Below are positions 9,612-62,702 of a DNA stretch of 64,000 nt, in pieces; the first letter of the stretch is position 1, and each line of letters starts with the position of its first letter. The translations under genes were made by a program, and so were the position numbers. The notes below the pieces were generated by a model. The model was not told the DNA's origin. It saw only the letters and a list, made by a program, of their open reading frames with translations, and did no database searches. The stretch is from a virus, in the IMG/VR virus record IMGVR_UViG_3300008261_000027, positions 1 to 64,000 of that record. The stretch is one strand, 5' to 3'.

Positions 9612-11717
9612 TTAGAAATCTAATTTTACGGAGAACACTTGAGCCGCAGTTCTGGTTATTGGTTTAGCCGTTTTAGCAATTACTAATGGTTCTTTGTTAT
9701 CATTTAATAATGCAACCTCAGTAATTTTTTTAGGTAAACCAGAAACATAAGTTGGATTTTGTGTATGTAAGAATTGTGTTGATGGTAGATTAACCATGAA
9801 GTTTAATACCTCAACGTCTGTTGCTCTGGTTAACTTAACCGCTCCGGGGAATGGTTGTGTGTCTCCAAATTGTGGTAATGTTGTCTGAGTATCTGATGGT
9901 TGATTTCCTAAGAATTCTTCAATATCATAATAATCAGCAGAATCTACCATGTCTCCAGTTACAACAAATTGATATCCACACATTTTATTACCTGGTATTA
10001 AATTACCAACTGTATGTCCAGATATTTGTGATGTTAAATCAACCATTCTCCAATCATCTGTTGTTGGTTGATTTCCTGTGGGTATTACTTGAACTAAGGC
10101 AAAAAACTTATTTGCTGTAAATCCTGTGAAATATGATGATGAGCTTAAATAAGCGAAATCATTAGTATCAAATTTAAAACCAATATTTGAATCTGTTGAT
10201 CCAGTTATTTTCCCATAATAATTACAGTGCATACCGTTTCTACCAGTATCTCCGGTGTATTGGAACATATAGGTCACCCACGCCGTTTCTCCGGTTTGAA
10301 CAACCGGTGTTAAATCATAAAATGTTGGTAGATCAACTGGAACTGTACTAAACCTAGGTGCTGGAAGTGTCCATTTTCTATTTGATTTATAATCAAGTAT
10401 TGCAACCAATTCTTGGTCATCAAAAACAATTATTTTTTTATCAACGAAAACTTTACCAACTCTATTACCTTGTTCATCCAACAAAAATCTAAACTTAACA
10501 TTATTAGTGTTTGGTTTATTGTTTTTTGATGATGAAACATAATAATTTGTTGTATCCATTACAAATTTTGCACCGATAGTACTTCCAGTATTTCTGTGAT
10601 AAAAAACAAACGGAATATAGACCTCAAAATAATCTGTATCTGAAACATCTACACCATCAATTTCGTACTCATCTGTTGTACTTGATCCGATATAATCATC
10701 ATACTTAAAAAATCTTTCAGGATCATTAACAATATCACCTAATTCTGAATAATGAATAACTGCAATACATCTTTGATCTTCTGGTTTGATATTAATCTTT
10801 TCACCAAATGAATTTGTGTAAGATGTTGGATTTGAAATTGTCCCTCCAGTTAAATTTGTAAATGTTTGGCCAGATGTTGATGTGTACCCAAGATACTCTT
10901 TTAGTGATGCAAATTGGGTTCCGGTATATCCACTAATATTTTCATCAAGTAAATCTTGAAAAGCATTTGAATCTAATCCCGCTGGTTTTTGAGTCCAGAT
11001 TAATTCTAATGACCATGGATCGTGTTGGTCTAAATTATCAACCGGTACAGGTGAACAAACTGTTGATTCTGTTGGTGTTTCTGGATATTCTAAACTACAC
11101 TTATTACATATAACTTGTGCATATCCAGTTTCTCCAGTTAAATTAGGCATAGGTCTATCTAGTTCAATTTCATTTGCAGAAATATCTACTATCTTATAAA
11201 CTAAACTTTGTGTTTCACCAGTTAATGTATAATCCTGTCCGCATAATCTTGTTTTAAATAATATCGTAATATATTCACAACCAGTGTATCCGGTTGCACC
11301 AGTAACTGATAATAAATTTGTACCATCGATTTGAGTAATATCAATTTCTTTAACTAAGCACTCAACAGTTGTACCGCTACATTCTTCAGCATCATATGGT
11401 TTATAATTTGATACAAACCCTGCTGGGCCCATCGGGTTTTTAATTGTTTCTGTTAAAGATTGTTGAATAGCATTACCAAAATTAATTGTTTCACCAGAGC
11501 TAACTAGATATGGATATTTGATATGTTGATCGCCGTCCATAGGTGCTAACACTCTTTGGTGCGTTGTACCAGTATATCCACTAAACGTATAATCAAATTC
11601 AGAATCGCCAACCTGAAAATATTTTATAACAAAATTACCTTCAGCAATAGACTTTCTACCCTTTCTGGTTATTCTGGCTGACAAATATTCTGAATTATTA
11701 CTATCTAAAAAGCTCAT
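9612..11717 (-). CDS. Baseplate/tail-fibre attachment protein
   Basis: N-terminal ITRKGR...FQVGD and C-terminal ITEVALLND...IAKTAKPI resemble a tail-collar fibre fold split by a large insertion. Confidence 0.6.
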   Translation of the reverse strand: MSFLDSNNSEYLSARITRKGRKSIAEGNFVIKYFQVGDSEFDYTFSGYTGTTHQRVLAPMDGDQHIKYPYLVSSGETINFGNAIQQSLTETIKNPMGPAGFVSNYKPYDAEECSGTTVECLVKEIDITQIDGTNLLSVTGATGYTGCEYITILFKTRLCGQDYTLTGETQSLVYKIVDISANEIELDRPMPNLTGETGYAQVICNKCSLEYPETPTESTVCSPVPVDNLDQHDPWSLELIWTQKPAGLDSNAFQDLLDENISGYTGTQFASLKEYLGYTSTSGQTFTNLTGGTISNPTSYTNSFGEKINIKPEDQRCIAVIHYSELGDIVNDPERFFKYDDYIGSSTTDEYEIDGVDVSDTDYFEVYIPFVFYHRNTGSTIGAKFVMDTTNYYVSSSKNNKPNTNNVKFRFLLDEQGNRVGKVFVDKKIIVFDDQELVAILDYKSNRKWTLPAPRFSTVPVDLPTFYDLTPVVQTGETAWVTYMFQYTGDTGRNGMHCNYYGKITGSTDSNIGFKFDTNDFAYLSSSSYFTGFTANKFFALVQVIPTGNQPTTDDWRMVDLTSQISGHTVGNLIPGNKMCGYQFVVTGDMVDSADYYDIEEFLGNQPSDTQTTLPQFGDTQPFPGAVKLTRATDVEVLNFMVNLPSTQFLHTQNPTYVSGLPKKITEVALLNDNKEPLVIAKTAKPITRTAAQVFSVKLDF

Positions 11718-11737
11718 ATTTTATTTTATATTTTTAT

Positions 11738-12820
11738 TTAAAATGGATTTTCGCCGCCGCTACACGACACATTTCCAACATTAGTTACCATACCCATTGA
11801 ATCGATTTCGACAAAATAATATGTTCCAAGAGTATATGTGTTTTCATATTGGGTTGTGCTAATTGCATAAACATAACCTGATCCCGCACCAACAATCGGA
11901 TCACCGTTGGAATCATATATAGTATAATTAAGCATTCCTGAAATTGTAGATGACGTTGATTTAACTACCGCTGACATAACATATCCAGGGCTCGAACAAT
12001 ATGTTGTTTGAGTTTGCTCTGGTGTTGCAGTTGGTGCTGGGCTACAGCCTATTGTTACACTCCAAGCATCTGATGGATTTGGTGGTGTTCCATCAGGATT
12101 TGCTGGGCCAACATCAACACGTAATTCATATGTTGTTCCAGATGAATATGTAAAGTTAAATGATCCATTACCATCAGTATCAACCAAACTACCTGCGCTA
12201 CCCCAAGGGCCGGCATATGTATTATCAGATCCAACCCAACCACTGTTCGCAATTAATGAGCTATCACCATATATGTTAAATCTATTTGGTCTATCATTTG
12301 CCACAAATGTGATTGTAACTATATCGCCATTTGTTGCATCACTCAAATCGAGATATTTTGTTTGTGTTACAAATGTACTTGGTGCGTATGTATCAGACAC
12401 AGTATCACCACAACCATACATTACAACTGTTGCTGTAGGTGTTGGTGTTGGTGTACTAGTAGGTGTGCTTGTTGGTGTACTTGTTGGTGTTGCGGTTGGA
12501 CCTACGGGCGTTGCTGTAGGCGTTGGTGTTGGTGTATTAGTAGGTGTTGCGGTTGGAGTTGCTGTAGCTCCAGCAACAAAATTAATATTAATACATTGTG
12601 TTGTCCCCGAACATTGCCCATTATCAACCTTAACATATAAAGAGGTTACCAAATCGTTAGTTATTGATATTGTTTTTGGAAACCCAGAAACAGCTTGTCC
12701 TGTTGCCAAACTTGTACAACCACTTCCACAAGAAGCACCTGTACAACCAGATATTGAAACAGTACTACCTGTTATATCTTCACCAACTGTACCTAAATTT
12801 ACTAGCGCGTTAAATGCCAT
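11738..12820 (-). CDS. Putative fibre/adhesin with PT linkers
   Basis: Cys-containing N-terminal domain, TPTPT linkers, beta-rich modules. Confidence 0.6.
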   Translation of the reverse strand: MAFNALVNLGTVGEDITGSTVSISGCTGASCGSGCTSLATGQAVSGFPKTISITNDLVTSLYVKVDNGQCSGTTQCININFVAGATATPTATPTNTPTPTPTATPVGPTATPTSTPTSTPTSTPTPTPTATVVMYGCGDTVSDTYAPSTFVTQTKYLDLSDATNGDIVTITFVANDRPNRFNIYGDSSLIANSGWVGSDNTYAGPWGSAGSLVDTDGNGSFNFTYSSGTTYELRVDVGPANPDGTPPNPSDAWSVTIGCSPAPTATPEQTQTTYCSSPGYVMSAVVKSTSSTISGMLNYTIYDSNGDPIVGAGSGYVYAISTTQYENTYTLGTYYFVEIDSMGMVTNVGNVSCSGGENPF

Positions 12821-12847: not shown

Positions 12848-13261
12848 TTATATTGTTGCTGTTGCTGTTCCACTGTTAAAATCACAATATATTATTTCAG
12901 TTGGTGTTGGTGTTGGGGTTATTGATGCTGTTGCAGATCCGCCACTAAAATCACAAATCGGCATACACGGATCGTAATAACTTTCACTATGAATTTTAAC
13001 ATTTTCAATAATATACCCATCCGTAACAGTATCTTGTATTTTTATCCAAACTGTGTCAAAAAATATATCATCAAATGTGGCCCCAGTTAAAATAACTGGG
13101 TTTGTATAATAATTCCTAGATGCACTAGAAGGATATGTACCACCATATTGTGTGTAACCAGTAGCAATAACTGTTTCATTACCTGGTGTAGGTGCAATCC
13201 TATATGAAAGTTCAAAAGGATTTGGACAATTTATATCATATACTCTAATGTGTAAACCCAT
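12848..13261 (-). CDS. Small virion-associated protein with two CDF motifs
   Basis: C-terminus [35 protein letters not shown]. Confidence 0.55.
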   Translation of the reverse strand: MGLHIRVYDINCPNPFELSYRIAPTPGNETVIATGYTQYGGTYPSSASRNYYTNPVILTGATFDDIFFDTVWIKIQDTVTDGYIIENVKIHSESYYDPCMPICDFSGGSATASITPTPTPTEIIYCDFNSGTATATI

Positions 13262-13346: not shown

Positions 13347-13931
13347 TTATACGCTTGCGCCCGAATCTAAAACAAACGCGACATAATCGTTTCCACTGGT
13401 AATTCCAATCGTATGATCATATGTTGCGTTACCTCCAGTAGCTGATCCTGGACATGTTGATGACCCAACCCCGACCATCGCATAAGTTTGGTCTGTTCCA
13501 ATTGTAACAATATCACCTAATGTTAATCCAGTAATTGTACCAATTAAAGAACAACTATTTGTCAATGGATCAAGCGTTGTTAAATATTCTGTTGTTCCAC
13601 TGTTTACTTGATAATAAACTGAAGCATTTGCTGGTGTACCATCAAGATCTTTACCATATACTTGTAGATCTACCAGAGATCCACCTCCACCTCCACCAAT
13701 TCCAGTTAACCATTCTTGACTTGTGCTACATGTTCCAGTGCTTTGTATTGTACCACCACTTAATGTTTCATATGTGGTGTTTATTGTATAACCACTTATT
13801 AATTGATTTTTCGTTACCCCTGTTGCTAATTGATAGGTGGTTCCACCAGTAGTTGTTCCTGAAATATTAAATGGACCGGCCACATATGTTGCACCAGTAT
13901 AAGGCGATTGTAATGTGAATGTAATTGTCAT
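13347..13931 (-). CDS. Putative fibre/adhesin subunit
   Basis: N-terminal domain shared with neighbours (GPFNI, ATGVT..QL, STGTC), Gly linker, beta-rich C-terminal domain. Confidence 0.55.
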   Translation of the reverse strand: MTITFTLQSPYTGATYVAGPFNISGTTTGGTTYQLATGVTKNQLISGYTINTTYETLSGGTIQSTGTCSTSQEWLTGIGGGGGGSLVDLQVYGKDLDGTPANASVYYQVNSGTTEYLTTLDPLTNSCSLIGTITGLTLGDIVTIGTDQTYAMVGVGSSTCPGSATGGNATYDHTIGITSGNDYVAFVLDSGASV

Positions 13932-13979: not shown

Positions 13980-16900
13980 TTAAGCATTACATAATTGTGA
14001 ACATGAACTAAATGATCCATAAATCTCTGTCAATTCATAAACGTAGCTAGGACCAGAAGCATTACTTACTAGTTTATATGCATAACCATCAGGGCCTGCG
14101 GATGATGGATAGAACTCATTCAATGCTACTATTGCCCCCGCTGCGATTCTAGCAACACCTGTTCCGGATAAACTACAACCGCTACAGTTATAAACCTCAA
14201 CATTATAGTAATCATATGCTGGAGCACATGAATCTAGTGTCACCATACTACTTGTAACCACACAACCATTTGCATCAGTAACTTTAACACGATATGCAAA
14301 AGAAGCGGTCAATCCGGTTACATTTCTAGTTGCATCACCACTATTGACGCCAGTAAATGTTGCAATTAAAGATGTGTTAATAGGATCATTATATGGTGAT
14401 GTATTATCCTCATAAACTTGATATGTTTTAGGGAAAATTCCGCCGCTAGAAGATACTTGAATAACACCACTACTATCACAATCTGGTTGTGTAACAACGG
14501 ATATCGATGCTGTTCCTTGTGTTGGTTGTGACAATTGGGCTGGGGTCAAATCATTTGTTGCGTTAGCACCATCTTTTACCCTAAATGTGTATGTTGTATT
14601 AGCAACTAAATTACTGAATGTTTTAGGTAAATTATAATATGGGAAATAACCATCTTCGCTAAATGCAACTTGATAACCACTACCACTTCCACCACTAGGA
14701 TTTGAGATTGTGTAGCTACCATCAGATCCACCATTACAACTAATGTTTGAATACGCTATTTGCGCTGTTGGTGCTGTAGGAATTGTAATTGTTACATTTG
14801 AAACAATTCTTTCACAATCTGAATTATCTCTAACATAAACACTATATGTCCCCGATCCTAATCCTGTGTATTGTTTACTACTTGAACTAAACGTTTCATA
14901 TGTACCAGAATTTAGCTTCACATCATAATCTGCAAATCCAGATCCAGTTCCACCCTGTGGACTACTAACTGTAATTGTTCCTGTTCCGGTATATGTGGAT
15001 GGGTTTGTTGATGAAACTGATGCTGTTACTATTGAATTTTGTGTTACAGCTACGCTGTATGTTTGTGTACATGTTGCACCATCTTTAATACCTATTGTAT
15101 AGGTACCGGAACTTAATCCAGTGAATGTTTTTGGTAAATTAAAATATGCCCCGCCACTTATATTTGCTTGATACCCACTTCCGCTTCCGCCAGTACCGTT
15201 TGTTACTGCAATTTGGCCAGTAGAATCGTTAAAACAGGTTACATTTGTTACTGTTGTTGTTGCATTAGGTGCAGATTTTGATAATACTTGTGTTGTTGCC
15301 GTAACGCAATCATTTTGATCTTTTACATATAAAATATATGTTCCGTTACTTAAACTACTAAATGTTCCGCTTGATTGGAAGTTTATACCATTTATTGAAT
15401 ATGTTTTTGTTCCAGTACCGCCAGAACCAGAAACGGTGATACTTCCGTTACTACCATCCCAACAAGTTGGTGCTGTTGCATCTGTCACACTAATTGAAAG
15501 TGCTGTTGGTTGTGTAACAGTAACAGAATATGATTTAACACAATTGCTATTATCTTTAACATAAATGGTATAAGTTCCGGCGGACAAAGAAGTGAAAGTA
15601 TGTGATGAAACGAATCCAGTATAATTTGTCCCGTCTTTTGAAACTCGATAAGGTGAATTTCCTCCAGTAAAACTTGTTACAGCTATCGATCCAGTACTAT
15701 CACCATTACATGCAATATTTGTTGGTGTAAATGTGGCGTTTGGAGCTGTTCTATTTAGTGTAACTGAAGTTGTTACAACACAATTGTTTGCATCTTTTGC
15801 ATAAACTGTGTAAGTACCATTACTTAAACTACTAAACGTACCAGAAGATTGGTAATTCGTGCCATTTATTGAATATGTTTTTGTTCCTGTCCCGCTAGAC
15901 GCCGATACGCTTATAGAACCATCACTACCATCCCAACAAGTTGGGTTTGTCCCTGATGCTGAAATACTAATCTGTGTTGGTTCTGTTATTGTTACCGAAT
16001 ATGTGTTTTCGCAGTTTGCACTATCTTTAACATAAATGGTATATGTTCCAGCAGCTAATGAAGAATATGTTCTAGATGTTGTTATTACTTGATAAGTTCC
16101 ACCCGCATTTAATTTTGTTGAATATGGGCCACCTTGTCCGCCACTTAATGACGATACCGTTATTTCACCACCTGATGCACCATAACAAGTGTTGTTTACT
16201 TGAGATACCGTTGCTGTGACCTGAGTCCTACTCAATGTAACTGAAGTTGATCCCGTACAATTGTTACTATCTTTAGCATAAATTGTATATGTTCCATTTG
16301 CTAAATTACTAAAAGTTGTGCCGGTCTGATAGTTTGTACCATCTTTAGAATATGTGTACCCACTTCCAGATCCACCAGAAGCAGAAGAAACGGTAATTGA
16401 TCCATCTGTACTGGCATTACAAGTTGGATTAGTGCCGGATGCACTTACTGAAACAACCGATGGTTGTGTAACTGTAACTGAAGTACTACCAACTTCATTA
16501 TAAGAATCTTTTGCATAAATTGTATAAGAACCCGCAGTTAATCCACTAAAAATAGTACTTGATTGATAATTGCTACCGTCTTTAGAATATGTGTAACTTG
16601 CGGTACCTCCACTAGCATTTGATACTGTTATAACACCGTTAGATCCACCATTACATGTTACATTTGTTGTTGCTGACGCTGTTACAGAAATTGTTACATT
16701 TGTAATTGTAATTGTTATGGTTTTATCAAATGTTAACCCACCGGCATCTGTTGCTCTAACCCTAATTGAATAACTAGATTTAGTTTCATAATTAAAAACA
16801 ACAGAACTTTTTAATGTTGTTCCATCAATATAAAAACTTGAGTTATCGGGATATGTTACGGTATCATGTAATGTGAATGTAAAAGTATCACTAGCATCAG

Positions 16901-18038
16901 GATCTGTTGCCGATAGTGTTCCAATAGTTGTTCCTGTTGGTACGTTTTCAGATATAGATGAAGAACTTAAAGAAATATTTGTTGGGGCTTCATTAACATT
17001 TGTTACATTTATTGTAAATGTTCCATCGTATGTTAATCCGCCAGCATCTGTTGTTCTCACTCTTATTGAGTAAGATGTTTTTGACTCGTAATTAAAAACT
17101 ACCGCATTTTTTAACACACCAGCACTAGATAGTGTAAAACTTGCATTATCTGTGTCGCCAGTTCCACTTACTAAAGCATATGTAAAAGTATCCCCAGCAT
17201 CAACGTCTAATGCACTAAATGTACCAATTGTTGTTCCGGTTGCTGTATTCTCTTGTTGTGAACTATTATTAATAGTTAAACCATAAGGTGCTTCATTAAC
17301 ATTAAGAATGTTAATTGTAAATGCCTTATCAAAATATTGACCAACGCTATCTGTAACTCTTATTGTAACACTATGTGATGTTGCGGATTCATAATTAAAA
17401 CTTTGTGATGATCTTAATGACGTACCAGAAATATTAAAGTTTGTTCCACCACTTATAACTGTATATGTGTGTGTGTCACTATTATCTAATGTTGTGACAG
17501 ATAGTGTACCAATAGTAGTGTTAATAGCACTATTTTCATTAATTGTGTTATTACTTAATGAAATATCTGTTGGCGGGAAATTAACATTAACGTTAACATC
17601 AAATTCACAATTAAGTGTTGGCGTTGGTGTTGGTGTTGGAGACGGACTCGGGGTTGGTGTTGCGGTAATTACGTTTGTATTAACATCAAAATCGCAATTC
17701 GGTGTTGGTGTAGGTGTTGGTGTCGGAGTTGAGGTTGGGGTTGGACTCGGAGTTGGCGTTGGACTTGGAGTCGGTGTTGGGGTTGGTGTTGGTAATATTA
17801 ATTCATCTCCAGCCAAACAGTTTTGATCTGTATTGTATAATACTATTTTTATTGCTTCATCTGGCACAGAAACTAGCACACCATCAATATCTGTTAAATC
17901 AGAATATGTGATCCCTGTTGCTGGTTGAGATGTTGATACAACGGTAGCAATATTTGAAGGATTAACAACATCATAGTAGATGTTGTATGGTCCTGGTGCT
18001 GTTCCTGATACTATATTAACCGTGTATTGTTTCGCCAT
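13980..18038 (-). CDS. Large adhesin/fibre with cadherin-like domains and SprB-like repeats
   Basis: Three cadherin-like units (ISEN...[30 protein letters not shown]) and many C.G..DG.I...SGG...Y.YS...L..GTY.IY.KD.N.C repeats. Confidence 0.8.
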
Positions 18039-19971: not shown

Positions 19972-22900
19972 TTAACACGCATATGAGTCTGTCACATTAC
20001 CATTATTATCTATTTTTAATTCCGTTCCGGCATTTGATGCATGATTGCTACCATAATATTTATTTTGTCCATAATATCGCACTGACATAGTGGCTTCAGA
20101 ATAGAATCTAGTTACTAATGTCCAATCTGAGTTGTTGCCATATGCTGTATATGGATATGGTCCAGACAATTCTGTACAACCTTCTGTCGATGGGTTGGTT
20201 TGTCCAGTGCTAATATTATAAATTGTAACAGGACACGAAATCGCATTAAATGTAAATGATGTTAATGGCGTGAATTCAGTTACTATACCATTAACAACCT
20301 TAATTATATTAGACACATTTCGGTCTATATTTCCTGGAAAATCTGTTTGTACCGCCGTAAAATTACATGAGCTACAGAAATTGTATGTAATATTTCCACT
20401 ATATATTTCTGTTCCAACACCTAATGTTTGAGATGATGGATATGCATATTGTGACCCACCATAACTTGAATTAGGACTTATCAGTACATGATTTATATAA
20501 TCTGCAACTTCTTGTGGTGTGTTATTCAACCAATAGATATTATTTTCACATATCCTTCCATTAGTGTAGAACCAAGTTGTATTAAATGATTGAGTTGGTG
20601 TAGGCGTTGGTGTACTACTAATAATAGATGTCGCAGTTGGAGTTGGTGTTGGTCCAGTCGTAGCAGTTGGTGTTGGTGTTGGTGTAGCAGTAATAAACAC
20701 TTCTGTAAATGTTGCATCAAATGAACAATCAACAGTTGGTGTTGGCGTAGGTGTAGCAGTAGGTGTTGAACTAGGCGTTGGGCTAGGTGTTGCAGTTGGA
20801 GTCGCTGTTGGAGTTGGCGTAGGTGTACTAGTTGGTGTTGCGGTTGGAGTTGGAGTTGATGTTGGTACCGGTGTAGGTGTTGGCGTAACATATCCATACA
20901 CTATATCGCATGTTGCAATAGGTGGATCAGTACATACATCAAAACCATCAATATCTCTAGTTAAACCACTGATTGGTATTGGTGAACAATATGGTTCATT
21001 AACATAATATTGTTGAAGATAGGCATCCATTGGATTTGTCTCAACATATTCGTGTTGAACTAATAATGTGTGGTTATTATTACCATTGAATACTACTAAG
21101 TTTGTTAAATTAGTATCACCAGTTACATTTATATTGAAATAAAGATTTGGTTCACAATAATTTAAATCTACCGAAACAACTTCGATTAATTCCCCAGTTT
21201 CAGTTATGATAAAATCACCAGTATCATAATAATCTGATGGATAATCACAACATGGTTCTTGTTGTTCTTCTGGTTTTAATTGTAAAAACTCTGGTGATCT
21301 ACTAACAAAAAAGTAAGATTTTTTTCTTGTTATTGGTTGCACACCACTTTCGTCAACAACTTTATTTGTATATACTCTTAATTTTGTTGTTGGTAAAACT
21401 TCAAATACTTCATATACACCATTTGATGTTATACCGGTAATTAAACTAGTTTTCACCGATCCAAGACAATCAATATATGATATAGTACTTGCTGAATAAT
21501 CATATGAGAAAGAATAATCACCACTTAATTCTGAATTTTCAAACATACTGCTCGTGAATCCAGAACATGGTAATAAATTCGCGGTTAATATTGTTTGGCC
21601 GCTAACTAATGCTGAAACATTTGTTTCGATTAAATTTCCCGATGTAATGTAATTGTTTATATCTTGAGATGTTGTATTAGAATTAATTGTAACACCACTT
21701 ACACGATATACCTTTGAATCAGATTTTAATCCAACATCATAACTGTTTCTAAATTGTACATTTGGAGATATTGTGTGTGCAGTTTCTGAAACATAATTAA
21801 TTCCTAAACCTTGTATTTTAAATTTAAGATCACAGTTCGCTGCATCGGTAATTAAAACATCAATCTCATCGTCTTCTTTTACATTTGTAACAATAAATTG
21901 ACAGGTATCTCCAGTCGATTTAAGGAAAAATGTTGTAGGGTCATTAGTAACACCATGATAAACGTTAACCCCTTCATCACAATTTTTATGCATGTAGATT
22001 CCCCAATTAGGAACCCCAGTATAATTGTTTTGAACAGTTACGCCAGTTAAATTAATAACAACATCACTAACTAATTTACAATCAGTTTGCCCGGTGTAAA
22101 CATCACACACAGCGAATATTTCCGCATCCATGTAGCATTTTGGGTCTTGTGTTACACCATAATTTGCTGAAAAATAAAAATCTAAAGATCTATCACCTCT
22201 ACAATCGCCATTATTATTTAAAATAAATTTAATTTTTTTAACTTGGTTGGTATCTTCAAATATTTCATAACTTAATAGCTGGCTATCTCTAGATAACGTG
22301 GCGCCTGTGGGCACATAACTAGGAACGTTTGTTGCGCTATACTGTGTATATGTGTCATTTATATTAGCAACGAGGTTAGCAATTGCTTGATCCCAATTTG
22401 CTTTTATTGTTGTTAAGTTTAAACTTATCCAATTTTTATATTCACAAATTAAAGGAATTGCAGTTGAAGAGTTTGCTAAAATATCACAACTATTTGACGC
22501 GGTAAATCCACTAGGAAAAATTGTTGATCCAGTAATTGAAACTTGTGTTGATCCCGTATATTCAACACCATCTATCTCAATAGATAGTGTGAATGTAACC
22601 CCACTAAAATATGTCAATCCTCTTAACTTATCTGGTTCACCAATAATTGTTTCAAGATCTTCTTCAATAAATGATTCAAAATCCGGATATAAATTTTCAA
22701 CAATTTCTAATGGTTTACATGGTTTTTTGTACGCATATTTTGGTCTACCAAAAACGCTATTTGTAACTAAGTTACCACCCATCCACAATGTTGTTGATGG
22801 AACGATTTGATCTAAAACGCTAGTCCAATATGGACTCATTTTATTAACAAAATCTGATACTGTTACAATATCATATGGAGTGTATCCAGACAATTGTAAT

Positions 22901-45232: not shown

Positions 45233-48200
45233 CTAAATAAGTCTAAAATAAACGACATCCCCTTCGTTTACCTTTAATTTTCTCATCAACATTGAGTTCA
45301 TACCTATTCCATAATTACCAATACTTTGGTCTGGGCCGTTAAGTACAGGTCCATTATATAGATTTGTTGTTGCATCTCTTGTCGATACAAGTGTATATTT
45401 TGCATTCGTTCTAGGATTTAAAAACTCAGTTTTATAGTTTAATAATTTTTCTTTATTTGCTTGACTTCCGTTTAATCTAACTGAATAGTATTCTCCTAAC
45501 GAGTTTTTAATATTTTCCCATTTTTTGATTATGTTTTCCGTAGAGCTAAGCCCAGAAATAAGGTCCATAGCAACTTTGTCATCAATTGGATTATTTGTAC
45601 CACCCATTCTAACAACTCTAGCTCTTAACCATTGATTATTGTTTCCACCAAGATCTATCAATTGAACATATTTCTCTTCTTTACCATTATATTTTGCTCC
45701 ATTATATGGGATCATTTCTTGATAAAAACCAGATGTATAAACTAATTTTTTGTATAAATCTTCGCCAGCCAACTCATTACCTGGATTAATATTGGCGCTT
45801 TCACTATTTGGTAATGTTATTGTTTTTTCTGTTGTTTGTTGACTATCTATTTGTTGTTTTTTTCTTATTGCTGATGATAGCAACTTACTAAATAGAGGTC
45901 TATAACTAGCCATGAAAGAATTTTCTAGGTTTGGTAGACTACTGTTTGAAAGTCTGACACCAGTCAGTGTTGTTTCAATAGTGTTGTCAGATATGCTATG
46001 GGTAACATCAAAAACAAGATAGGTTCCTTCAAACATAGGTACGTTTGCCAAATAAAAATACATGGTTGGTTGTATCATTACATTACCCATCATCTTAACG
46101 GTACACTGATAAGATGCAGTTTTGTAGATATCAAATAATCCAATATCTACCTGGTGGGTTCCACCACCACCCTGTGATCTGGCTAATCTTTCTTGTGCTA
46201 AAGCACTTTCTGTAGTATTTTTATACGTGCTTTGATCTAAAGATATTTCTTTAAAAATACCTTGACTATAATCACCAAAATTAATTTCAAATGAAACCAC
46301 TCTATTTGATTTAGATAGATCTGCATCCATAAAAATCTTTGGTTCTACTAATAGTGGATTTCTTGTTGTATCTTTAATATCAAATCCATCATTTTTAAAT
46401 TTAAATTTTTTATTTACCCTTTGCATGTCCAAATACTTAGATGTACCGTTAACATACTGTAGGATAATCTTTGGTGTTGCATCTTGATAATCAACATCGA
46501 GATGGGTACCAAATAAATTTTTTGCTAAATTTTTTGATGGAGTTATTCTAGATTTGTTTGAAGAGTTTGTTCCATAAAAATTGATGTATGCCGGAAGTGG
46601 TCTCATATCAAAATTAGTACCCTGTATTAAAATTGATACAGCTGAATATAAGTCTACTTTAATGTTTTTTTCATCACTAAGAGAAATTAATCTTTCTAGT
46701 GAGATGTACGCATCGTCACCAATATCTCTGTTTGCTTTATCTAAAAACAAAAACTCGTCCATAAGGTGTCTTTGTCCAATCGCATTACCAGAAATCCATT
46801 TATCGTTAAAAGATTTAAAAAACTGATATAAATCTAATTTTGTTGTCTTGGCTTCATTGAATCCATGATAAATTGTGATTTTATTATTTTGATCATTGTT
46901 GACCTGAAAATCTTTTGATTGTAATTTCACAATAAGGTTAGATAGGTAATTAAATAAACGTGTTTTTTCTGGTTCAGTAATTTGTGTTTTAATATAATTA
47001 ACAAAAGTAGTTTTTGTTATTGCTGTTGTTTGTCTTTTCGCCCATCCAGCATAAATTCTTGCTAATTCTCTATGGTTAATAATGTTTTCTTCATTAATTT
47101 CTATGTCTGCCAAAGAAAAGAAATCCCTATAATATGTTGTTGGTGTTGTGCCGGTATAGGCTTCCTCACCAATATATAGCTTTATTAAGTTTAGGTTGCT
47201 CGCAGTTAATTGTGATGCGTTGTATGAACCAAGGCTATAATTTTGACTATCACCAATAAATCCAAATAATGTATAATCATCTATTTGTTTTGGATTACCT
47301 AATCTTAACACTTTTAGATTTTCATTACTTAATAAATTTTTAGTTATTTGTTCTAGATTTTTTTCTTGGTTTTGAATTATATTAAGCTTATGATTATCAT
47401 TTGAAAAATCAATATTTTCTTTTGAAATTGAACATACTGCTTTTAATAAACCTTGAAAAGTTTTGTAATCTTGAACTGTATTCTTCGTATCTATTTGTAG
47501 ATTTAATGAAGAAAACACTAAAAACATTTCTTCCATTTTATCTAATAATGCTGGACTAAATGTTGCGATCAGATCAACAAACTTTCTTTGTTCCCCGATT
47601 AACGAATATACCCCATCCACATTTTTAAATGTTTCACCATAAGCTGGCATGGTGAAGGTGTTATAAGGTGTTAATGTATCATACACACCAGGATTATTTA
47701 AAATAATTTTAAATGAATCTTGTTCAAAATAACTAAAGTTTGTTGTTAAGTTTTTAACATCACTAAAAATTTGTGATGAAGGTAAAACAGTGTATCTAGT
47801 ATCGTTTACAGAAAATATACTATTATCAACAAAGCTGGTTAATGAATAACCTGGGCCGCCAGATGTTTTGTTTACTGAATATTTTGTTATTCCACTTGTA
47901 ACCGTATCGGCATATAATTGAGTTACGTTTGTTGTAGAAGCGGATACTTCAGTAAATCCAGATGGATTATAAAAACTATATCCATTTGTTATTTGATGAA
48001 AAATTCCAAAATAGTATGGATACAGACCAATATATTGATTTGAATTATAGGTAACCGCTGTCATTGGCGCAGTTATTCCAGATAAATTAAATGTTACATT
48101 TGTTGCATTGTCAAAAAAAGTACTACCACTAATAGAAGTTGTTGCGCCGCTGATAATATCAACCCCGTCTTTTAAATATCTTTTATATCTATGGTATTGT

Positions 48201-51034
48201 GAACCCCACTTTAATAATAGGTGATATGGAACGAAATGTGTCGCAGATATTTCTTTAAATAAAGAAGATATCAATACTTTGTTTCCGTTAAAATCTATTT
48301 CATCATCTAAGTCTTTGTATGGTAATGAATTTAATAAAAGATAAGCCGATCCAACATACCTGTTTGCAACGCCACCTTTTAAAAAGTCATTATATAACTG
48401 TTTATGGAAATATGGAGTATTTAATAAATTTTCATAAAAATCAACCGAATCTCCACTACTGTTTATTGCAGTTAATTTTATTTTATTTGAAAAAATATTT
48501 TGATCAAATCCTAATTGTAACCAAGCTTCTGGTTTAACTGGTGAACTAATAAAACTGTCATTAACATTTATAGAAAATACATTCTTAAATTTATAGTCAC
48601 TAGCAGATAAAGATTTTTTTAAATATTGTTTATATAAATCAGATCCAAAAGGAAATTCATATAATCTATATTCTTCTATTGAATAGTCATTTATTGCTGC
48701 TTGTAAATTTGGGTGCTCGGTGCTAGTGGCTGTGTTATTATTTGAAGCTGTATAATCAATAATTTCAAAATCTTGGTCAACTAATTCTTTTATATATTCA
48801 ACGGTCGAAAGTTTGTTTTGAAAAAATGGAAACCTTTCTTTTGTTCTTAAGGTATATAAAAGACTATTTGTTTCTCCGTTTACGGTCTTAACTTGATTTT
48901 TTATTAAATCTTTTATATCAATATCATTTTCTAATGAACTTTTTAATGTTTCAAATTCTGCGTTAACAATCTCTTCTAAACCTTTACCATATTGAAAATT
49001 ATTGTACGATGTAACATAAAATGCTCTTTCATATATTTCATACAATACATTTATTATAGATTTATCTGTATATGGGATAACACGATCTATTTCAAATAGT
49101 GTGCTTATTTTTTTAACGTTTCTTCTTTCTTGGTCATTATCAAAAATGAATGATAAATCAGATGAATCAATTTCTGTACCTGTTAATGGATCAACTCTTT
49201 TTGTTGCAACACTATTATATGTTTCAATAAATTCCACTTCCGGCCATAAACTAAAATCATTTCCTTTTGTATCACTAACAATTGCTGGATCAGCTGGGTA
49301 AAAAGATACGTCTCGCTCACTATCATCCTTTTTCAATATTTCTGGCCAAGGATAAAAATATTCATCTTTATTCTTATCTGTTGGTTTTACTAAATTACCT
49401 TTTCTTTCATTAGATTTTTGTATGGCTTTTTGATGAACATCTTTCATCAATCTGATATAGGTGTCAGCATTTGCTAATATAACCGCAAAAATATTTCTAA
49501 TAGTTGGTTTGAACCCAAAGCCACCCATATTTGGATTTTGGATAACTTTGTTCATCTCTTCTTCAATTTTAAGTTCAACTGAATTTCTACTAGTAATGAA
49601 AGTTGCTTGTATTGCTTTAATTTCATTAACTAATTTTTCAATAGCAACACCATATGTACCATTTTCAAGTGTATAAAAATCACCTATGTTTCTAATTCGA
49701 TCAATTGAAATTGGTGTAGTTGTTATTGTAAAATCTTCACCATTACTTTTTTTTGCTCTTTCCGATGATTTTTTTCCAAATGCAGTATTTTTTTCAGAAT
49801 TAGCTATAAAGAAATTTATTAGGTATTGTAACGACTTTTTATTTTCACCATTTGTGATTATATCTGAGCTTATAGGCCCATTAGTAAGTTTTGTTTGGTC
49901 ATTTAATGCTTTTATTAATCTATAATATTTGTAAACTGTTTGAGTTCCATCACTATTAGTGATAGTTTCGGTTTTTACCTCGTTCTCAGTTGAATTTAAA
50001 TTTCTATTACTCCAAGAAACAATGCTTCTTTCAAAACTATCTAATAGCGCATCAAATTCCGCAACGTGTGTTAATACGGTTGGGTCGACAGTTTCTGAAA
50101 ATAGTTGTGCCTCAATTATTTTATCTAGGGATTTTGCAGTCATAATTAAATCCCTTAGCGTTTTATCTGGAAAATCTTGGGGAATATAACCCTTTGCTTT
50201 GTAATCTGAATAAATTGATTTTAATATTGAAAATCCTTTTGTTGTTTTGGATATTTTCTTTTCAATAAGTCCAGTTTTTTCATTAACTCTATATGGTTCA
50301 TCTTGTTTTTCAACCATATACATGAATGGTGCATTAACGGCATTTTGAAAAAGTATATCATTTAGAAATGCGTATGAAGAACCAACAAACTTTGCAATAA
50401 TTTCAAAATTTCCGGTTGACCCATTAAACTTAGATTTAAAATCAACCATTTGTATTCTATATCGAATAGCTTTACCATAATAACCCTTTACTGTTAAATA
50501 AAATATTGGCCACGGCTGATGAAAAAAAGCGCTATATGGTGAATTTGCTGGTGCTTCAAATAATGTCTTTCCTCTTACATCTAAAAAGTTTATTGTTATT
50601 TGAGGGATATTGTTAACACCTTTTGTTATGATTGTTATATTCTGTATACCAAAAGTTTGTGCGGTTGGATCGTAAACCGCTTCGCCGCCCGTTGTTCTAT
50701 TTAGCCCAACATTTTTTCTAGAAACAAAAGTTTCAGTCCAATTAGTGTCTAGGTTATTTTCAAATTCGTTTTTATCCCCTTGATTTCTTAGTAAATTAAA
50801 TGAACCTTCAGCTATACTTAAAAGTGTGCTTTGTTGCCCATCGGCATAGAAAGTCGTTCTTGGAACCAAATCTGCTTCCAAGTTAACATACATAACTAGA
50901 TTTTCATGATCAACAAGTCTTGATTGTATTTGTCCATTACTATCAACTATACTATTTGGGTCAATATGTATAATGTTTTGTTGATCAACTGTTACTAATA
51001 TGTTCTCACTCTGATTTATTTTATCATTCGCCAT
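45233..51034 (-). CDS. Large baseplate hub-like protein (gp27-like halves around a large insertion)
   Basis: FGIQNITI...ITINFLDVRG and SYQCTVKMMGNVMIQPTMYF...GTYLVFDVTHSI; follows the LysM/gp53-like gene. Confidence 0.65.
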   Translation of the reverse strand: MANDKINQSENILVTVDQQNIIHIDPNSIVDSNGQIQSRLVDHENLVMYVNLEADLVPRTTFYADGQQSTLLSIAEGSFNLLRNQGDKNEFENNLDTNWTETFVSRKNVGLNRTTGGEAVYDPTAQTFGIQNITIITKGVNNIPQITINFLDVRGKTLFEAPANSPYSAFFHQPWPIFYLTVKGYYGKAIRYRIQMVDFKSKFNGSTGNFEIIAKFVGSSYAFLNDILFQNAVNAPFMYMVEKQDEPYRVNEKTGLIEKKISKTTKGFSILKSIYSDYKAKGYIPQDFPDKTLRDLIMTAKSLDKIIEAQLFSETVDPTVLTHVAEFDALLDSFERSIVSWSNRNLNSTENEVKTETITNSDGTQTVYKYYRLIKALNDQTKLTNGPISSDIITNGENKKSLQYLINFFIANSEKNTAFGKKSSERAKKSNGEDFTITTTPISIDRIRNIGDFYTLENGTYGVAIEKLVNEIKAIQATFITSRNSVELKIEEEMNKVIQNPNMGGFGFKPTIRNIFAVILANADTYIRLMKDVHQKAIQKSNERKGNLVKPTDKNKDEYFYPWPEILKKDDSERDVSFYPADPAIVSDTKGNDFSLWPEVEFIETYNSVATKRVDPLTGTEIDSSDLSFIFDNDQERRNVKKISTLFEIDRVIPYTDKSIINVLYEIYERAFYVTSYNNFQYGKGLEEIVNAEFETLKSSLENDIDIKDLIKNQVKTVNGETNSLLYTLRTKERFPFFQNKLSTVEYIKELVDQDFEIIDYTASNNNTATSTEHPNLQAAINDYSIEEYRLYEFPFGSDLYKQYLKKSLSASDYKFKNVFSINVNDSFISSPVKPEAWLQLGFDQNIFSNKIKLTAINSSGDSVDFYENLLNTPYFHKQLYNDFLKGGVANRYVGSAYLLLNSLPYKDLDDEIDFNGNKVLISSLFKEISATHFVPYHLLLKWGSQYHRYKRYLKDGVDIISGATTSISGSTFFDNATNVTFNLSGITAPMTAVTYNSNQYIGLYPYYFGIFHQITNGYSFYNPSGFTEVSASTTNVTQLYADTVTSGITKYSVNKTSGGPGYSLTSFVDNSIFSVNDTRYTVLPSSQIFSDVKNLTTNFSYFEQDSFKIILNNPGVYDTLTPYNTFTMPAYGETFKNVDGVYSLIGEQRKFVDLIATFSPALLDKMEEMFLVFSSLNLQIDTKNTVQDYKTFQGLLKAVCSISKENIDFSNDNHKLNIIQNQEKNLEQITKNLLSNENLKVLRLGNPKQIDDYTLFGFIGDSQNYSLGSYNASQLTASNLNLIKLYIGEEAYTGTTPTTYYRDFFSLADIEINEENIINHRELARIYAGWAKRQTTAITKTTFVNYIKTQITEPEKTRLFNYLSNLIVKLQSKDFQVNNDQNNKITIYHGFNEAKTTKLDLYQFFKSFNDKWISGNAIGQRHLMDEFLFLDKANRDIGDDAYISLERLISLSDEKNIKVDLYSAVSILIQGTNFDMRPLPAYINFYGTNSSNKSRITPSKNLAKNLFGTHLDVDYQDATPKIILQYVNGTSKYLDMQRVNKKFKFKNDGFDIKDTTRNPLLVEPKIFMDADLSKSNRVVSFEINFGDYSQGIFKEISLDQSTYKNTTESALAQERLARSQGGGGTHQVDIGLFDIYKTASYQCTVKMMGNVMIQPTMYFYLANVPMFEGTYLVFDVTHSISDNTIETTLTGVRLSNSSLPNLENSFMASYRPLFSKLLSSAIRKKQQIDSQQTTEKTITLPNSESANINPGNELAGEDLYKKLVYTSGFYQEMIPYNGAKYNGKEEKYVQLIDLGGNNNQWLRARVVRMGGTNNPIDDKVAMDLISGLSSTENIIKKWENIKNSLGEYYSVRLNGSQANKEKLLNYKTEFLNPRTNAKYTLVSTRDATTNLYNGPVLNGPDQSIGNYGIGMNSMLMRKLKVNEGDVVYFRLI

Positions 51035-59887: not shown

Positions 59888-59888
59888 A

Positions 59889-62702
59889 TTAAATATTTTC
59901 AAAAGAAGCTCCAGTTGGAGTTATGATAAACTCAACATCAATGAATTCTAATGCTCTTGTTGGTTTAACATAAATCTTACCTCTCAATGTGTTAGCATCG
60001 ATGTCTTCTGGATCATTAGATACCGTTACACGGAAATCAAACAAACCTCTTTCTTTCTTTATTGATTCAAGAATTGGATTAACCAATCTTAAGAATTCTT
60101 GTCTTACTTGTTCATCGTTTTGTTCAAACAATAATCTCACAGCAACAGCAGAAATTAACTTTCTTGCTCTCAATAGCAATCTTCTTACGTTGATTCTATC
60201 AAGTGCTGATTCTCTAACTTGAAGTGTTTTATTACCCCAGATAATTGTACCTGTATCAGAGAATGTTGCAATTGGGTTAATTCTTGCTTTGTAAAGACTA
60301 TCTCTTTCGTCCAAAGTAAGTTTCTTTTGTGCTTTGATAGCATTAACTAAACCTCTTGAATAACCTGCTGGAGCGAACCATGGATAAGAAACGTTATCTG
60401 TTAATGCGATATTTTTCAAAACCTCACCTGTTGGTGGTATGAAAAGTTGTGTTGCATTATCAGTATCTCTTACTTGAATCCAAGGCCAGTAAGTTGCTGA
60501 GTAGTTAGAATCAAACCCTAAATCTTCCAAACCTCCGATTGCCTCATCAGCTGTAGTGAAATTAGGAGAGTTGATCACATATAACGAGTCGGCTCTATCA
60601 TTTTCAATAATATCAACTGCTTGTGTTACCAAAGAACTGTTGTTGTACCAATCAATACCTGGTGTTGCAAATAAGTTAATATCAACTGCTTCTGGATTAG
60701 CAAATGTTTCAATACCTGCTAAGTAAGCATAGTAATCTGAATTACCCACCTGTGCATTAAACACACCTGCGTTTACACCGGCAGTGTATGTTGTTTTACC
60801 AAAAATATAAGAATCACCATATGTTCTTGTATTTCTGTAAATATCCCAACCATCAAATCCGCCAAATACTGGCATTGTAAATTTACGGTTTGCAACTGTG
60901 TTCAATTTACCTTTATCAGTACCTTCTAAATTATATGCTGTTGTTTTATACAAATAGTTACCTGTTGATCCAGTAATTGTTGAAGCATTTGTCGATAAGT
61001 GGAATCCAAATGTCGCTTGTGATGCTCCAGTTCCTTTAAACTTCAACATATCTCTATCATATTCAAAATGATCACTTGTTGAAAAACCTAAAGTTACCTT
61101 TCTAACTTTATCACCGTTTGTTGTTACTGCAGCTCCGCTAGCAGCATAATATAATGTGTCTCCAGCATCATAGTATTTTGTTTTGAAGGTCACACCACCA
61201 ATATTATTAGTTGTTGTAAATCCTTTAAAACCAGCAGGAACAGCGTCTGTTGGATGGTCTGAAGCCATAACCAACATAATATGTTTAGATCTTAATTCAT
61301 ATTCTCCATCAGATGTACCAACTTTTCTAGCGATATATCCAGGTACATCTGGATTCATTGAACATCTAGTAAATTTCTCTAATACAACTTGATTTTCATC
61401 AGTATCATTGAAATCTCTAACAATAAGATCAAATTCACCAGTTTCCAAATCAATATTTTGAATTGTAACTTTAACATTGAAGTTAGATGCTTCGCCATCT
61501 GATATTGTTAAAATATTAAATAAATCAGAAACAATACCACCTCTAACTTCAGAAACAACTGTTGAAGAAGCCGCAGTATCCCATTGAGTTGTGAAATTAT
61601 CATCATCGTCAACAACAACTTCTGTGGTACTTAAACCTCTAATCAATCCTTGCTCAAATAAGTTTGCAACTAAATTAGGATATGCTTCATGAACATAAAC
61701 TGGGAAAGCCAATTTATCTTTATCAAAAACATCACTACCAATAACTTTTGTTACATATTTTGTTGAGCTTGAATCTAATGAACAATTAAACGTTTTCACA
61801 TTAGAATCAATATCAGTTACTGATAATGTAAAATCTGATAGTGGGTTTACATCAATTGATGTACCTGTAATTTGTACAGCTGTACTTCCCGTAACTCTTT
61901 GTGTTAAAACCTCAGAAGCATAAGAGCCTCTTGATCTTAAAGCTAATACAACCTTATCGGCATAATCCTGATTTAAAGATGCACTATATTTGAATCTTGT
62001 TACTGTAAATTCTGTAGTACCGGTTGAATACACAAACAAATATGAGTACACACCATCAATTGTTGAATCAGTTGCGCCTGTTTTTGTAAAATATGTATTG
62101 TACCAGTTTTTATTATTGTTTGATCCGATTGGTGACGAAAGTTGTGTACCCGTTAATGAACTGGTTGAACTGGTTGGAACTTGTCCAATTGTAAACCAGT
62201 TATTGTGACTATAGGTTCTTCCAGATATAAATGATACAACAGAAGTACCTTCTGTAGATGTCTTTCCTGTTAAATCAGAATAGAAATCGCCATTAGCCAT
62301 ATCTGTAGGATCAATTGTTCCACCTGTTGATGTTGGTGTTGCATTTAAATTTACTGATACCCCACCTAATGTTTTGATTCCATATGTGTTACCGGCCATA
62401 TAGCCAGTTAAACCAAGTACTCTTGTTACGAACAATTGATTTGATTCTTGCAAATATGATTTTGCAACATATGGTAATTCATATTTAGGGTTACCAGCAC
62501 CGTCTTTTGTTGGTGATGTACCTCCAAAATATGTTTTAAATTCGTCAAAGTTAGAAATTAGTATAGGTTCAAACGCTGGTCCTTTTAAAGTCTCGCCAAC
62601 TAAACCAAGTGTCGTAACTCCAACACTCTGTGCCACGAATGATAAATCTTTCTCTGATGTATATACACCCGGAGAAACGAAAATTCTGTTTGAATTTGCC
62701 AT
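59889..62702 (-). CDS. Tail sheath protein (T4 gp18-like)
   Basis: SPGVYTSEKD, GETLKGPAF, YWPW, PWFAPAGYSRG, WGNKTL, RINVRRLL, P.RALEFI. Confidence 0.95.
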   Translation of the reverse strand: MANSNRIFVSPGVYTSEKDLSFVAQSVGVTTLGLVGETLKGPAFEPILISNFDEFKTYFGGTSPTKDGAGNPKYELPYVAKSYLQESNQLFVTRVLGLTGYMAGNTYGIKTLGGVSVNLNATPTSTGGTIDPTDMANGDFYSDLTGKTSTEGTSVVSFISGRTYSHNNWFTIGQVPTSSTSSLTGTQLSSPIGSNNNKNWYNTYFTKTGATDSTIDGVYSYLFVYSTGTTEFTVTRFKYSASLNQDYADKVVLALRSRGSYASEVLTQRVTGSTAVQITGTSIDVNPLSDFTLSVTDIDSNVKTFNCSLDSSSTKYVTKVIGSDVFDKDKLAFPVYVHEAYPNLVANLFEQGLIRGLSTTEVVVDDDDNFTTQWDTAASSTVVSEVRGGIVSDLFNILTISDGEASNFNVKVTIQNIDLETGEFDLIVRDFNDTDENQVVLEKFTRCSMNPDVPGYIARKVGTSDGEYELRSKHIMLVMASDHPTDAVPAGFKGFTTTNNIGGVTFKTKYYDAGDTLYYAASGAAVTTNGDKVRKVTLGFSTSDHFEYDRDMLKFKGTGASQATFGFHLSTNASTITGSTGNYLYKTTAYNLEGTDKGKLNTVANRKFTMPVFGGFDGWDIYRNTRTYGDSYIFGKTTYTAGVNAGVFNAQVGNSDYYAYLAGIETFANPEAVDINLFATPGIDWYNNSSLVTQAVDIIENDRADSLYVINSPNFTTADEAIGGLEDLGFDSNYSATYWPWIQVRDTDNATQLFIPPTGEVLKNIALTDNVSYPWFAPAGYSRGLVNAIKAQKKLTLDERDSLYKARINPIATFSDTGTIIWGNKTLQVRESALDRINVRRLLLRARKLISAVAVRLLFEQNDEQVRQEFLRLVNPILESIKKERGLFDFRVTVSNDPEDIDANTLRGKIYVKPTRALEFIDVEFIITPTGASFENI

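Follow-up and report, generated by a model that had tools for sequence, protein, structure and literature searches.

Excess of the [ST]-G-x-T motif in distal tail and fiber proteins of a large T4-related phage clade: a candidate hydroxyl-modification sequon

Introduction

The IMG/VR virus record IMGVR_UViG_3300008261_000027 is a single record of 118,317 bp from a T4-related myovirus with approximately 32% G+C. The window analyzed here is the first 64 kb of this record. Several proteins encoded in the window carry repeated copies of a four-residue motif, [ST]-G-x-T, composed of serine or threonine at position 1, glycine at position 2, any residue at position 3, and threonine at position 4. The initial annotation, made from the sequence alone, described the motif as saturating the virion proteins and absent from the enzymes, and proposed it as the target of a phage-encoded glycosyltransferase (GT) or other modifier coating the virion. 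The locus raises the question of whether this motif is a recognition signal, a structural habit of the proteins that carry it, or an artifact.

The observation of the motif itself is confirmed, and it is stronger than could be known from one genome because the excess extends across a clade of relatives. A plausible reading is that [ST]-G-x-T is a sequon for modification of a hydroxyl group, most likely by O-glycosylation. This sequence-based reading is given a probability of roughly 40% and leads, closely trailed by an unmodified structural turn, which is almost as likely.

Motif Counts and Controls

Open reading frames (ORFs) of this genome, of a 335-kb relative (G003), and of the outgroups were found with a simple caller that takes the longest ATG ORF of at least 60 amino acids (aa). 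Expected counts are composition products or shuffles. Across the 106 ORFs of the genome, with no selection of proteins, the motif occurs 136 times compared with 34.2 ± 5.6 in shuffled sequences, and its frequency is not explained by S/T/G composition. Fourteen motif-rich proteins were selected after the counts were seen and lie at window positions 9612-33064, 45233-51034, and 59889-62702, and at genome positions 72642-74087 and 92552-94285. They contain 118 motifs compared with 21.9 after whole-protein shuffling. Shuffling within blocks of 40, 20, and 10 residues gives 23.3, 24.4, and 26.8 motifs, respectively, with z scores of 19 to 21. The strictest of these local shuffles, in 10-residue blocks, still has a z score of 18.8. 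Because the excess survives local shuffling, local richness in S, T, and G is not its cause.

Patterns related to the motif were counted in the same 14 proteins (a period marks any residue). The permuted patterns T.G[ST], G[ST].T, [ST]T.G, G.T[ST], and [ST]G..T are at the expected level or below it, and [ST].GT is a little over expectation (38 copies, z scores of 2.2 to 3.7). [ST]G.S has 22 copies with 17 to 22 expected, and [ST]A.T and [ST]N.T are likewise at expectation. [DN]G.T is present 5 times with approximately 12 expected, NG.T and DG.T being slightly depleted, and G.T without a preceding S or T is present 57 times with 72 to 75 expected. Avoidance of Asn-Gly and Asp-Gly turns prone to deamidation was considered as a cause and rejected: the rich proteins have NG and DG at 1.09 and 1.08 times the expected level. 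In an unbiased scan of all gapped tripeptides, SG.T and TG.T rank directly behind (TP)n linkers and one short Cys-containing repeat.

The spacing of the motifs has no period, and of the 104 gaps that separate consecutive motifs, only 3 measure 3 residues. The doubled triplet G.TG.T occurs 5 times with 1.0 expected. Position x is free, as initially described, with no residue bias across sites. The residue at position -1 is hydrophobic at 60% of sites, compared with a background of 33%.

An artifact of composition, low complexity, or hidden tandem repeats is very unlikely. It would draw on the S/T/G-rich character of the proteins, on the (TP)n linkers and a repeated NCEFDV unit nearby, and on the SprB repeat, which holds the motif in its consensus region and accounts for the approximately 2-fold level of the 1352-aa protein described below. 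For the main proteins it is rejected by the 10-residue shuffles, by permuted patterns of the same composition that stay at expectation, and by the lack of a spacing period; proteins richer in S/T/G that show no excess also speak against it.

A DNA or mRNA site that is merely read out as S/T-G-x-T is the least likely of the explanations weighed. The position-1 S/T codon ends in T or C far above background, as such a site might produce. Such pyrimidine wobble before GGN is a codon-pair preference of the whole genome, and it also appears for Ala, Val, and Pro before Gly and in non-motif contexts. Serine at the motif is encoded by both AGY (34) and TCN (20) codons, and the Gly and Thr codons are mixed. 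A nucleotide-level signal was rejected on this codon evidence, and the motif signal sits in the protein and not in the DNA.

The motif was initially distinguished from the general O-glycosylation sequon of Bacteroidota, D-[ST]-[AILVMT], and this distinction stands. The Bacteroidota sequon is depleted in the 14 motif-rich proteins (27 copies vs. 50.1 ± 6.7), compared with the other 92 ORFs, where it is at expectation (79 vs. 75.7). N-x-[ST] is at expectation in both groups.

Distribution among Proteins

The proteins of the motif-bearing regions are listed below with observed and expected motif counts. All window genes of at least 100 codons are on the minus strand.

9612..11717, minus strand: 701-aa distal tail/fiber-module protein; 17 vs. 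1.03 expected, with 0 of 2000 shuffles reaching 17
11738..12820, minus strand: 360-aa protein; weak excess, 5 vs. 1.91 (p = 0.04)
12848..13261, minus strand: 137-aa protein; 2 vs. 0.29 (family, 86 vs. 29.1)
13347..13931, minus strand: 194-aa protein; 8 vs. 1.78
13980..18038, minus strand: 1352-aa protein with SprB repeats and cadherin domains; 12 vs. 6.35
18062-19951, minus strand: 629-aa fiber protein; at expectation
19972..25044, minus strand: 1690-aa fiber-like protein; 20 vs. 2.19, all within residues 224-1613
25978..26883, minus strand: 301-aa protein; 10 vs. 1.04
26885..27703, minus strand: 272-aa protein; 1 motif here, family rich
27705..29465, minus strand: 586-aa protein, encoded two genes downstream of the gp6-like wedge; 11 vs. 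0.64
29465..33064, minus strand: 1199-aa protein adjoining the wedge gene; 8 vs. 1.38, all in residues 609-1132
45233..51034, minus strand: 1933-aa tail-module protein; 6 vs. 1.28, five of them in residues 962-1047
59889..62702, minus strand: tail sheath, 937 aa; 7 vs. 1.65, six of them in residues 126-271
Genome 72642-74087, beyond the window: 481-aa protein; 6 vs. 0.58
Beyond the window: capsid protein, 577 aa; 3 vs. 0.45, at residues 203, 235, and 411

The genes at 9612-33064 lie directly downstream of the wedge gene. In T4-like phages the established gene order keeps the peripheral baseplate and fiber genes downstream of the wedge gene, and by this order the genes at 9612-33064 would form the peripheral baseplate/fiber module. 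Only the 1352-aa protein among them, with its SprB repeats and cadherin domains, has a match in Pfam or PHROG. The motif count is 0 in the tube, the gp6-like wedge, the portal, and tail/baseplate proteins of 1590, 649, 302, and 246 aa. The enrichment is thus limited to the distal baseplate/fiber module and lineage-specific insertions, with the capsid protein weakly enriched, and the description of the motif as saturating the virion proteins, or as virion-wide, does not hold.

The sheath illustrates the insertions. Six of its seven motifs lie in residues 126-271, where both outgroup sheaths are gapped at five of the six sites, which agrees with the initial placement of most sheath motifs in a variable insertion. 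In the 1199-aa protein, the alignment to the 335-kb relative covers only 581 residues. The homologue of the 1933-aa protein in that relative has 10 motifs with 1.5 expected.

The hand counts of the initial annotation (17, 10, 11, and 7 for the 701-aa, 301-aa, 586-aa, and sheath proteins) are all exact. So are the zeros given for three enzymes, NrdA (0.46 expected), NrdB (0.06), and the SbcC-like 777-aa protein (0.29). Absence from enzymes is correct for these three and does not extend to all: TGKT is present in the DnaB-like helicase and the UvsX-like recombinase, where it is the Walker A P-loop (the G-K-T of NTPases), which explains the few motif matches in enzymes. Depletion of the motif in non-virion proteins was also considered and rejected, with 18 motifs vs. 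12.0 expected in the remaining genome outside the rich proteins and 109 vs. 104.2 in the rest of the G003 genome. The low values of single enzyme families across relatives are zeros inherited among homologues.

The approximately 2-fold level of the 1352-aa protein is the level of bacterial SprB adhesins and points to inheritance with the domains. The 629-aa protein contains nine near-identical units (18 letters each) with (TP)n linkers between them. Two units of the same type are present in the 1352-aa protein, and the two proteins have a common N-terminus. The 137-aa protein at 12848-13261 contains two related C-D-F units.

Relatives and Clade Specificity

In two scans of IMG/VR, homologues with identities of 41-89% were recovered at 53 and 80 loci, and every full-length homologue is motif-enriched. 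The 60 unique homologues of the 701-aa protein have 5 to 22 motifs each with 0.7 to 2.0 expected, and the 33 homologues of the 586-aa protein have 5 to 16 with 0.4 to 1.05 expected. Family totals, which are sums over unique but related sequences, are as follows (observed vs. expected).

701-aa family (62 unique IMG/VR homologues): 832 vs. 75.6
586-aa family: 327 vs. 22.1
272-aa family: 118 vs. 15.5
301-aa family: 282 vs. 47.3
1690-aa family: 693 vs. 161.9
1199-aa family: 196 vs. 55.0
Wedge family: 3 vs. 12.2
NrdA family: 0 vs. 10.5

Ten more motif-rich fiber-module proteins were found in the relatives with no homologue in this genome (for example, 22 motifs vs. 2.67). In G003 the same proteins are flagged, with 93 motifs vs. 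12.9. Four large and very S/T/G-rich proteins of G003 show no excess (observed/expected of 5/11.1, 9/13.4, 9/12.6, and 11/10.3). These four are among five consecutive large proteins (893-1631 aa) at G003 226505-245424.

The outgroups, which share a homologous wedge gene, were examined in the same manner. Flavobacterium phage immuto has 88 motifs vs. 51 genome-wide, with two small proteins flagged, and Microcystis phage Mel-JY01 has 36 vs. 28, with no protein containing three or more motifs. The phenomenon was not found in the 42-kb stretch examined of the uncultured phage LR756508. Bacterial SprB adhesins (17 open frames) have 299 motifs vs. 157, with 187 copies of the reverse motif. The outgroup phages, the S/T/G-rich G003 proteins, and the SprB adhesins are thus only at 1-fold to 3-fold.

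Common domain ancestry of the rich proteins was considered as an explanation and rejected with blastp and hhalign. The sole blastp match among the rich proteins is the common N-terminus of the 1352-aa and 629-aa proteins, and hhalign gives a probability of 0.3% for a relationship of the 586-aa family with the 701-aa family, which indicates that they are unrelated. Because the outgroups lack the excess and unrelated families share it, the excess is, on the sequences compared, confined to one clade of phages, in which families without detectable homology acquired it in parallel. This bears out the initial suggestion of convergent selection across unrelated proteins.

Evolution of Motif Sites

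Some motif sites are well conserved. All 34 aligned sequences of the 586-aa family keep TGLT at residue 353, and in the 701-aa protein three sites are near-fixed, being shared by 49 to 52 of 61 sequences. Many others turn over. The 701-aa family has 93 motif columns, of which 56 are rare, 30 are at the level of a clade, and 7 are conserved. Control patterns in the same family have 14 to 47 columns, with 0 to 7 at clade level and 0 to 2 conserved. Means per sequence are 13.7 for [ST]G.T, 1.5 for [ST]G.S, 1.0 for [ST]G.[VI], and 0.3 for [DN]G.T. This turnover of sites is as expected of a sequon.

At position 1, S and T interchange freely, and at position 4, T is far more common than S. Where a variable site retains its Gly, S/T at position 1 is coupled to T at position 4 with pooled odds ratios of 12.3 and 18.3, calculated without phylogenetic correction. 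The baseline from neighboring positions, used as a yardstick for shared ancestry, is 1.0 to 3.1, with one value of 6.2. D or N replaces S/T at some aligned sites, and there the position-4 Thr is lost too.

Structural Setting

AlphaFold2 models were made for the 701-aa and 586-aa proteins. The 701-aa model is usable, with a mean predicted local distance difference test (pLDDT) score of 77.6. The 586-aa model is poor (mean pLDDT of 50), with only residues 160-300 usable. In the 701-aa model, 12 of the 14 confident sites have the motif Gly in coil, compared with a 50% baseline. At 7 of the 14, a strand of at least 3 residues starts 2 to 6 residues after position 1, compared with 22% (p = 0.02), and three sites are at helix N-termini. 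Residues 113-207 form a small beta-barrel resembling phage tail decoration domains in a VIA-align comparison, a middling match with a Z score of 8.2 and a root-mean-square deviation of 3.0 Å over 75 residues. The motif sites in this barrel are at residues 114, 139/142, 166, and 194, a spacing of approximately 26 residues. A Foldseek search of the 701-aa model against the PDB gave no match at E ≤ 0.001. The motif-bearing parts presumably face outward.

These features bear directly on the reading that trails the sequon so closely. The motif may be an unmodified structural idiom in which S/T caps the backbone together with Thr 4, as in an ST-turn or capping box, Gly makes the turn, and Thr starts the strand. 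Newly evolved Thr-rich beta domains would then reuse a cheap strand starter, and nothing would recognize the motif. The hydrophobic residue at -1, the Gly in coil, the strand starts, and the helix N-termini are all consistent with this, as are the sites that are invariant across homologues, the constancy of x within a site, and the substitution of D/N at position 1 and I/V at position 4 in some homologues. The geometry of a reciprocal hydrogen-bond pair between residues i and i+3 would also explain the coupling of positions 1 and 4. The milder excess in SprB adhesins and in immuto fits as well.

The distribution of the excess argues the other way. ST-turns, ST-motifs, and capping boxes occur everywhere and accept D/N at i and several residues at i+3. 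They resemble the present motif in having S/T at i, a partner at i+3, and a location at the start of a secondary-structure element, but in this genome the forms with D/N at position 1 or Ser at position 4 show no excess, and the excess of the motif is specific to one clade. Physical chemistry is universal, yet an excess of 5-fold to 17-fold is confined to this clade and is missing from the S/T/G-rich proteins of the 335-kb G003 and from outgroup fibers. The structural equivalents [DN]G.T, [ST]G.[VI], and [ST]G.S are not enriched, unrelated families have the excess in common, and new columns gained at clade level are at least 4 times as numerous as in any control (30 vs. 0 to 7).

Glycosyltransferases

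A search of the rest of the genome for glycosyltransferases, proposed in the initial annotation, identified two. The first is a 261-aa GT2-family protein at genome 83113-83898 that scores 28.8 bits against a cut-off of 23.3 and has viral GT2 clusters in the Atlas. The second is a 413-aa GT-B/RfaG-like protein at genome 77663-78904 that matches phrog_7162 (9.6e-44) and, in an Atlas structure comparison, has a template modeling (TM) score of 0.93 to viral RfaG-like clusters. PDB sequence searches with both proteins gave nothing useful.

Of the 9 long relatives searched for GT2, 6 have the gene, and the search for the GT-B-like gene was positive in 5 of 6 (in G003 by tblastn, and in 4 of 5 others). 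Every relative is motif-bearing, and the three long contigs in which no GT was found stop short of the expected locus; by synteny with G003, the GT locus of these three would lie beyond the contig end. The two glycosyltransferases are core genes of the clade. The complete-rated 335-kb G003 has six places matching PF00535, five of them over the cut-off. Neither a GT2 nor a GT-B-like gene is detectable in immuto or Mel-JY01, where most genes of this phage are likewise undetectable, and GT2 was not detected in LR756508.

A hydroxymethylase of the thymidylate-synthase type (PF00303) was looked for in 4 records and found in none of them; the control was matched in 10 of 14 genomes. Glucosylation of hydroxymethylated DNA in the manner of T4 is therefore less likely, and other DNA modifications are possible.

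Two further observations concern these genes. At genome 82040-84596 (plus strand), a 358-aa protein without a family match, the GT2, and a sigma-70 region-2-like gene overlap end to end, which suggests that they form one operon. The GT-B-like match holds one TAA in two relatives, at G009 94084-95322 and G008 163618-164838, and the open frames there are nearly full length, at 410 and 406 aa. The TAA may be an edge effect of the match or may mark a disrupted gene.

Comparison with Known Systems

Mycobacteriophages are reported to encode glycosyltransferases that O-glycosylate the virion at the C-termini of the capsid and tail-tube subunits (Freeman et al. 2023, as cited in PMC12619734). The likeness lies in a tailed phage with its own glycosyltransferases, in virion proteins as the proposed acceptors, and in a proposed shielding role. 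The present case, known from sequence, differs in having a motif dispersed over baseplate, fiber, and sheath-insertion domains with none in the tube. Its capsid motifs, at residues 203, 235, and 411 of 577, also differ from the C-terminal sites described there. The citing paper describes "moraphages" with four core glycosyltransferase groups and glutamine synthetases (PMC12619734). Glutamine synthetase (PF00120) had no match in 5 of 5 relatives of the present clade.

Other comparisons are with bacterial systems. General O-glycosylation in Bacteroidota acts outside the cytoplasm, and tailed-phage virions assemble inside. It resembles the present case in having a short Ser/Thr sequon over many unrelated proteins and in the probable host phylum, but its motif is another one, with fewer copies than expected in the motif-rich phage proteins. 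The cytoplasmic heptosyltransferases Aah and TibC hyper-glycosylate autotransporter adhesins and recognize a strand-loop-strand element. By description, the likeness lies in an enzyme acting in the cytoplasm, in beta-rich adhesins with many Ser/Thr sites each, and in sites within short loops beside beta-strands. The acceptor proteins and the motif differ. Collagen-like G-x-T triplet arrays are O-glycosylated on Thr, as in Bacillus BclA. T-G-x-T has the look of two adjacent G-x-T triplets, and a few doubled sites exist here, but long triplet arrays and 3-residue periodicity are absent.

Genome Context and Host

CheckV estimates the completeness of the 118-kb record at 38%, and further relevant genes may sit beyond it. 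The record is collinear with the central third of the complete-rated 335,630-bp relative G003 (its positions 93-214 kb). This collinearity and the low completeness indicate that the phage is probably a jumbo phage of which the record is a fragment.

Identified head genes include the Gp23-type major capsid protein, the T4-type portal, the prohead protease, and the large terminase. Tail genes are the sheath, the gp6-like baseplate wedge, the tube gp19, and a T4 baseplate protein. Genes for replication and nucleotide metabolism are NrdA, NrdB, the DnaB-like helicase, the UvsX-like recombinase, SSB, and a primase, and other identified genes are ClpP, the SbcC-like protein, and an SbcD-like protein. 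The ClpP protease is at window 2432-3106 (minus strand, E of 3.5e-56), and a ClpB/ClpA-type double AAA+ chaperone is also encoded, at genome 106571-108589 (plus strand).

Even the closest cultured phages are only remotely related. The capsid and wedge proteins are 25-43% identical to those of Flavobacterium phage immuto, Microcystis phage Mel-JY01, and the uncultured LR756508, and the capsid protein matches that of Rhodothermus phage RM378 at 28% identity. Neither DNA nor protein matches for the 701-aa protein or the GT2 were found in the phage collection. Among cellular sequences, the SprB-repeat region of the 1352-aa protein (residues ~450-900) is related only to Bacteroidota adhesins. All 19 confirmed loci, at 24-42% identity, are of this kind and come from Flavobacterium, Paenimyroides, Fluviicola, Tenacibaculum, Saprospiraceae, and others. 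These relatives fit a host among the Bacteroidota, which is probable on this sequence evidence, and are a clue to capture of the domain from the host.

Discussion

The favored reading is built from the following elements. [ST]-G-x-T is a selected four-residue unit, usually placed after a buried hydrophobic residue in a loop and often before a beta-strand. This unit is repeated in lineage-specific parts of the distal baseplate/fiber proteins, in the sheath insertion, and weakly in the capsid protein, and its use is shared by a whole clade of large T4-related phages that probably infect Bacteroidota. It would serve an enzyme as the recognition site, or sequon, for modification of one of the two hydroxyls. 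O-glycosylation in the cytoplasm by glycosyltransferases of the phage is the likeliest modification and would give the exposed parts of the virion a coat. We infer all three of recognition by an enzyme, the identity of that enzyme, and which hydroxyl is modified.

This reading is favored because strict hydroxyl chemistry, coupling of positions 1 and 4, turnover of sites, clade specificity, and parallel gain are properties of a recognition signal, and because the clade has several glycosyltransferases. The initial proposal of a modification target is kept to this extent, resting on a protein-level, clade-specific signal and on the GT genes, and is not kept as a target spread over the whole virion.

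The same properties could belong to the recognition element of a non-catalytic partner, such as a chaperone of fiber assembly, a protein that cements or decorates the particle, or numerous weak lectin-like contacts with glycans on the host surface. Specific chemistry, coupling, and clade specificity would be accounted for, as would the restriction of the motif to the fiber module and lineage-specific insertions. No candidate partner was identified, and more than 100 sites per protein set with turnover would be unusual for a chaperone or cement site. Such a partner is considered unlikely.

Several points weigh against the sequon reading. A promiscuous cytoplasmic enzyme might select against off-target sites, yet the non-virion proteins show no avoidance of the motif, and the remaining genome outside the rich proteins is if anything above its expected count. 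The regular structural setting in the 701-aa model fits an element intrinsic to the fold. Within some sites x is constant, with Q in 61 of 61 sequences at one of them, and at several sites the alternative state is D/N at position 1 with I/V or N at position 4. The lack of a phylogenetic correction also counts against the strength of the coupling, and T-rich beta proteins in general show a 1.3-fold to 3-fold excess. The GT genes are in a plus-strand block with dUTPase, PhoH, and a sigma-like gene, away from the structural genes, and their acceptor could be DNA, host polysaccharide, or another molecule. Among cultured relatives, even the closest match the GT-B-like gene at only approximately 26% identity. 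Word searches of the literature, which other spellings may escape, found no description of an [ST]-G-x-T sequon or phage-protein motif.

In its fullest form, the sequon reading holds that a widespread clade of large freshwater Bacteroidota phages glycosylates well over 100 sites on outward-facing domains of its fiber, baseplate, sheath, and capsid proteins at [ST]-G-x-T by means of its own cytoplasmic glycosyltransferases, and has purged these domains of the host sequon D-[ST]-[AILVMT]. This fuller form is doubtful. If true, it would give the first case of a tailed phage with a glycan coat defined by a sequon.

If the motif is a structural turn, it is an unusually clean case of one tetrapeptide adopted in parallel by unrelated families in a single lineage, and would be useful for fold design and for the annotation of dark phage tail proteins. 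If the motif is a sequon, the modification sites of uncultured virions would be readable from sequence across a clade of well over a hundred environmental contigs, and orphan phage glycosyltransferases would gain a testable acceptor. A glycan coat on the fibers and sheath would bear on host recognition, on particle stability, and on stickiness in lake water, and would also bear on how bacterial defenses or grazers perceive the particle.

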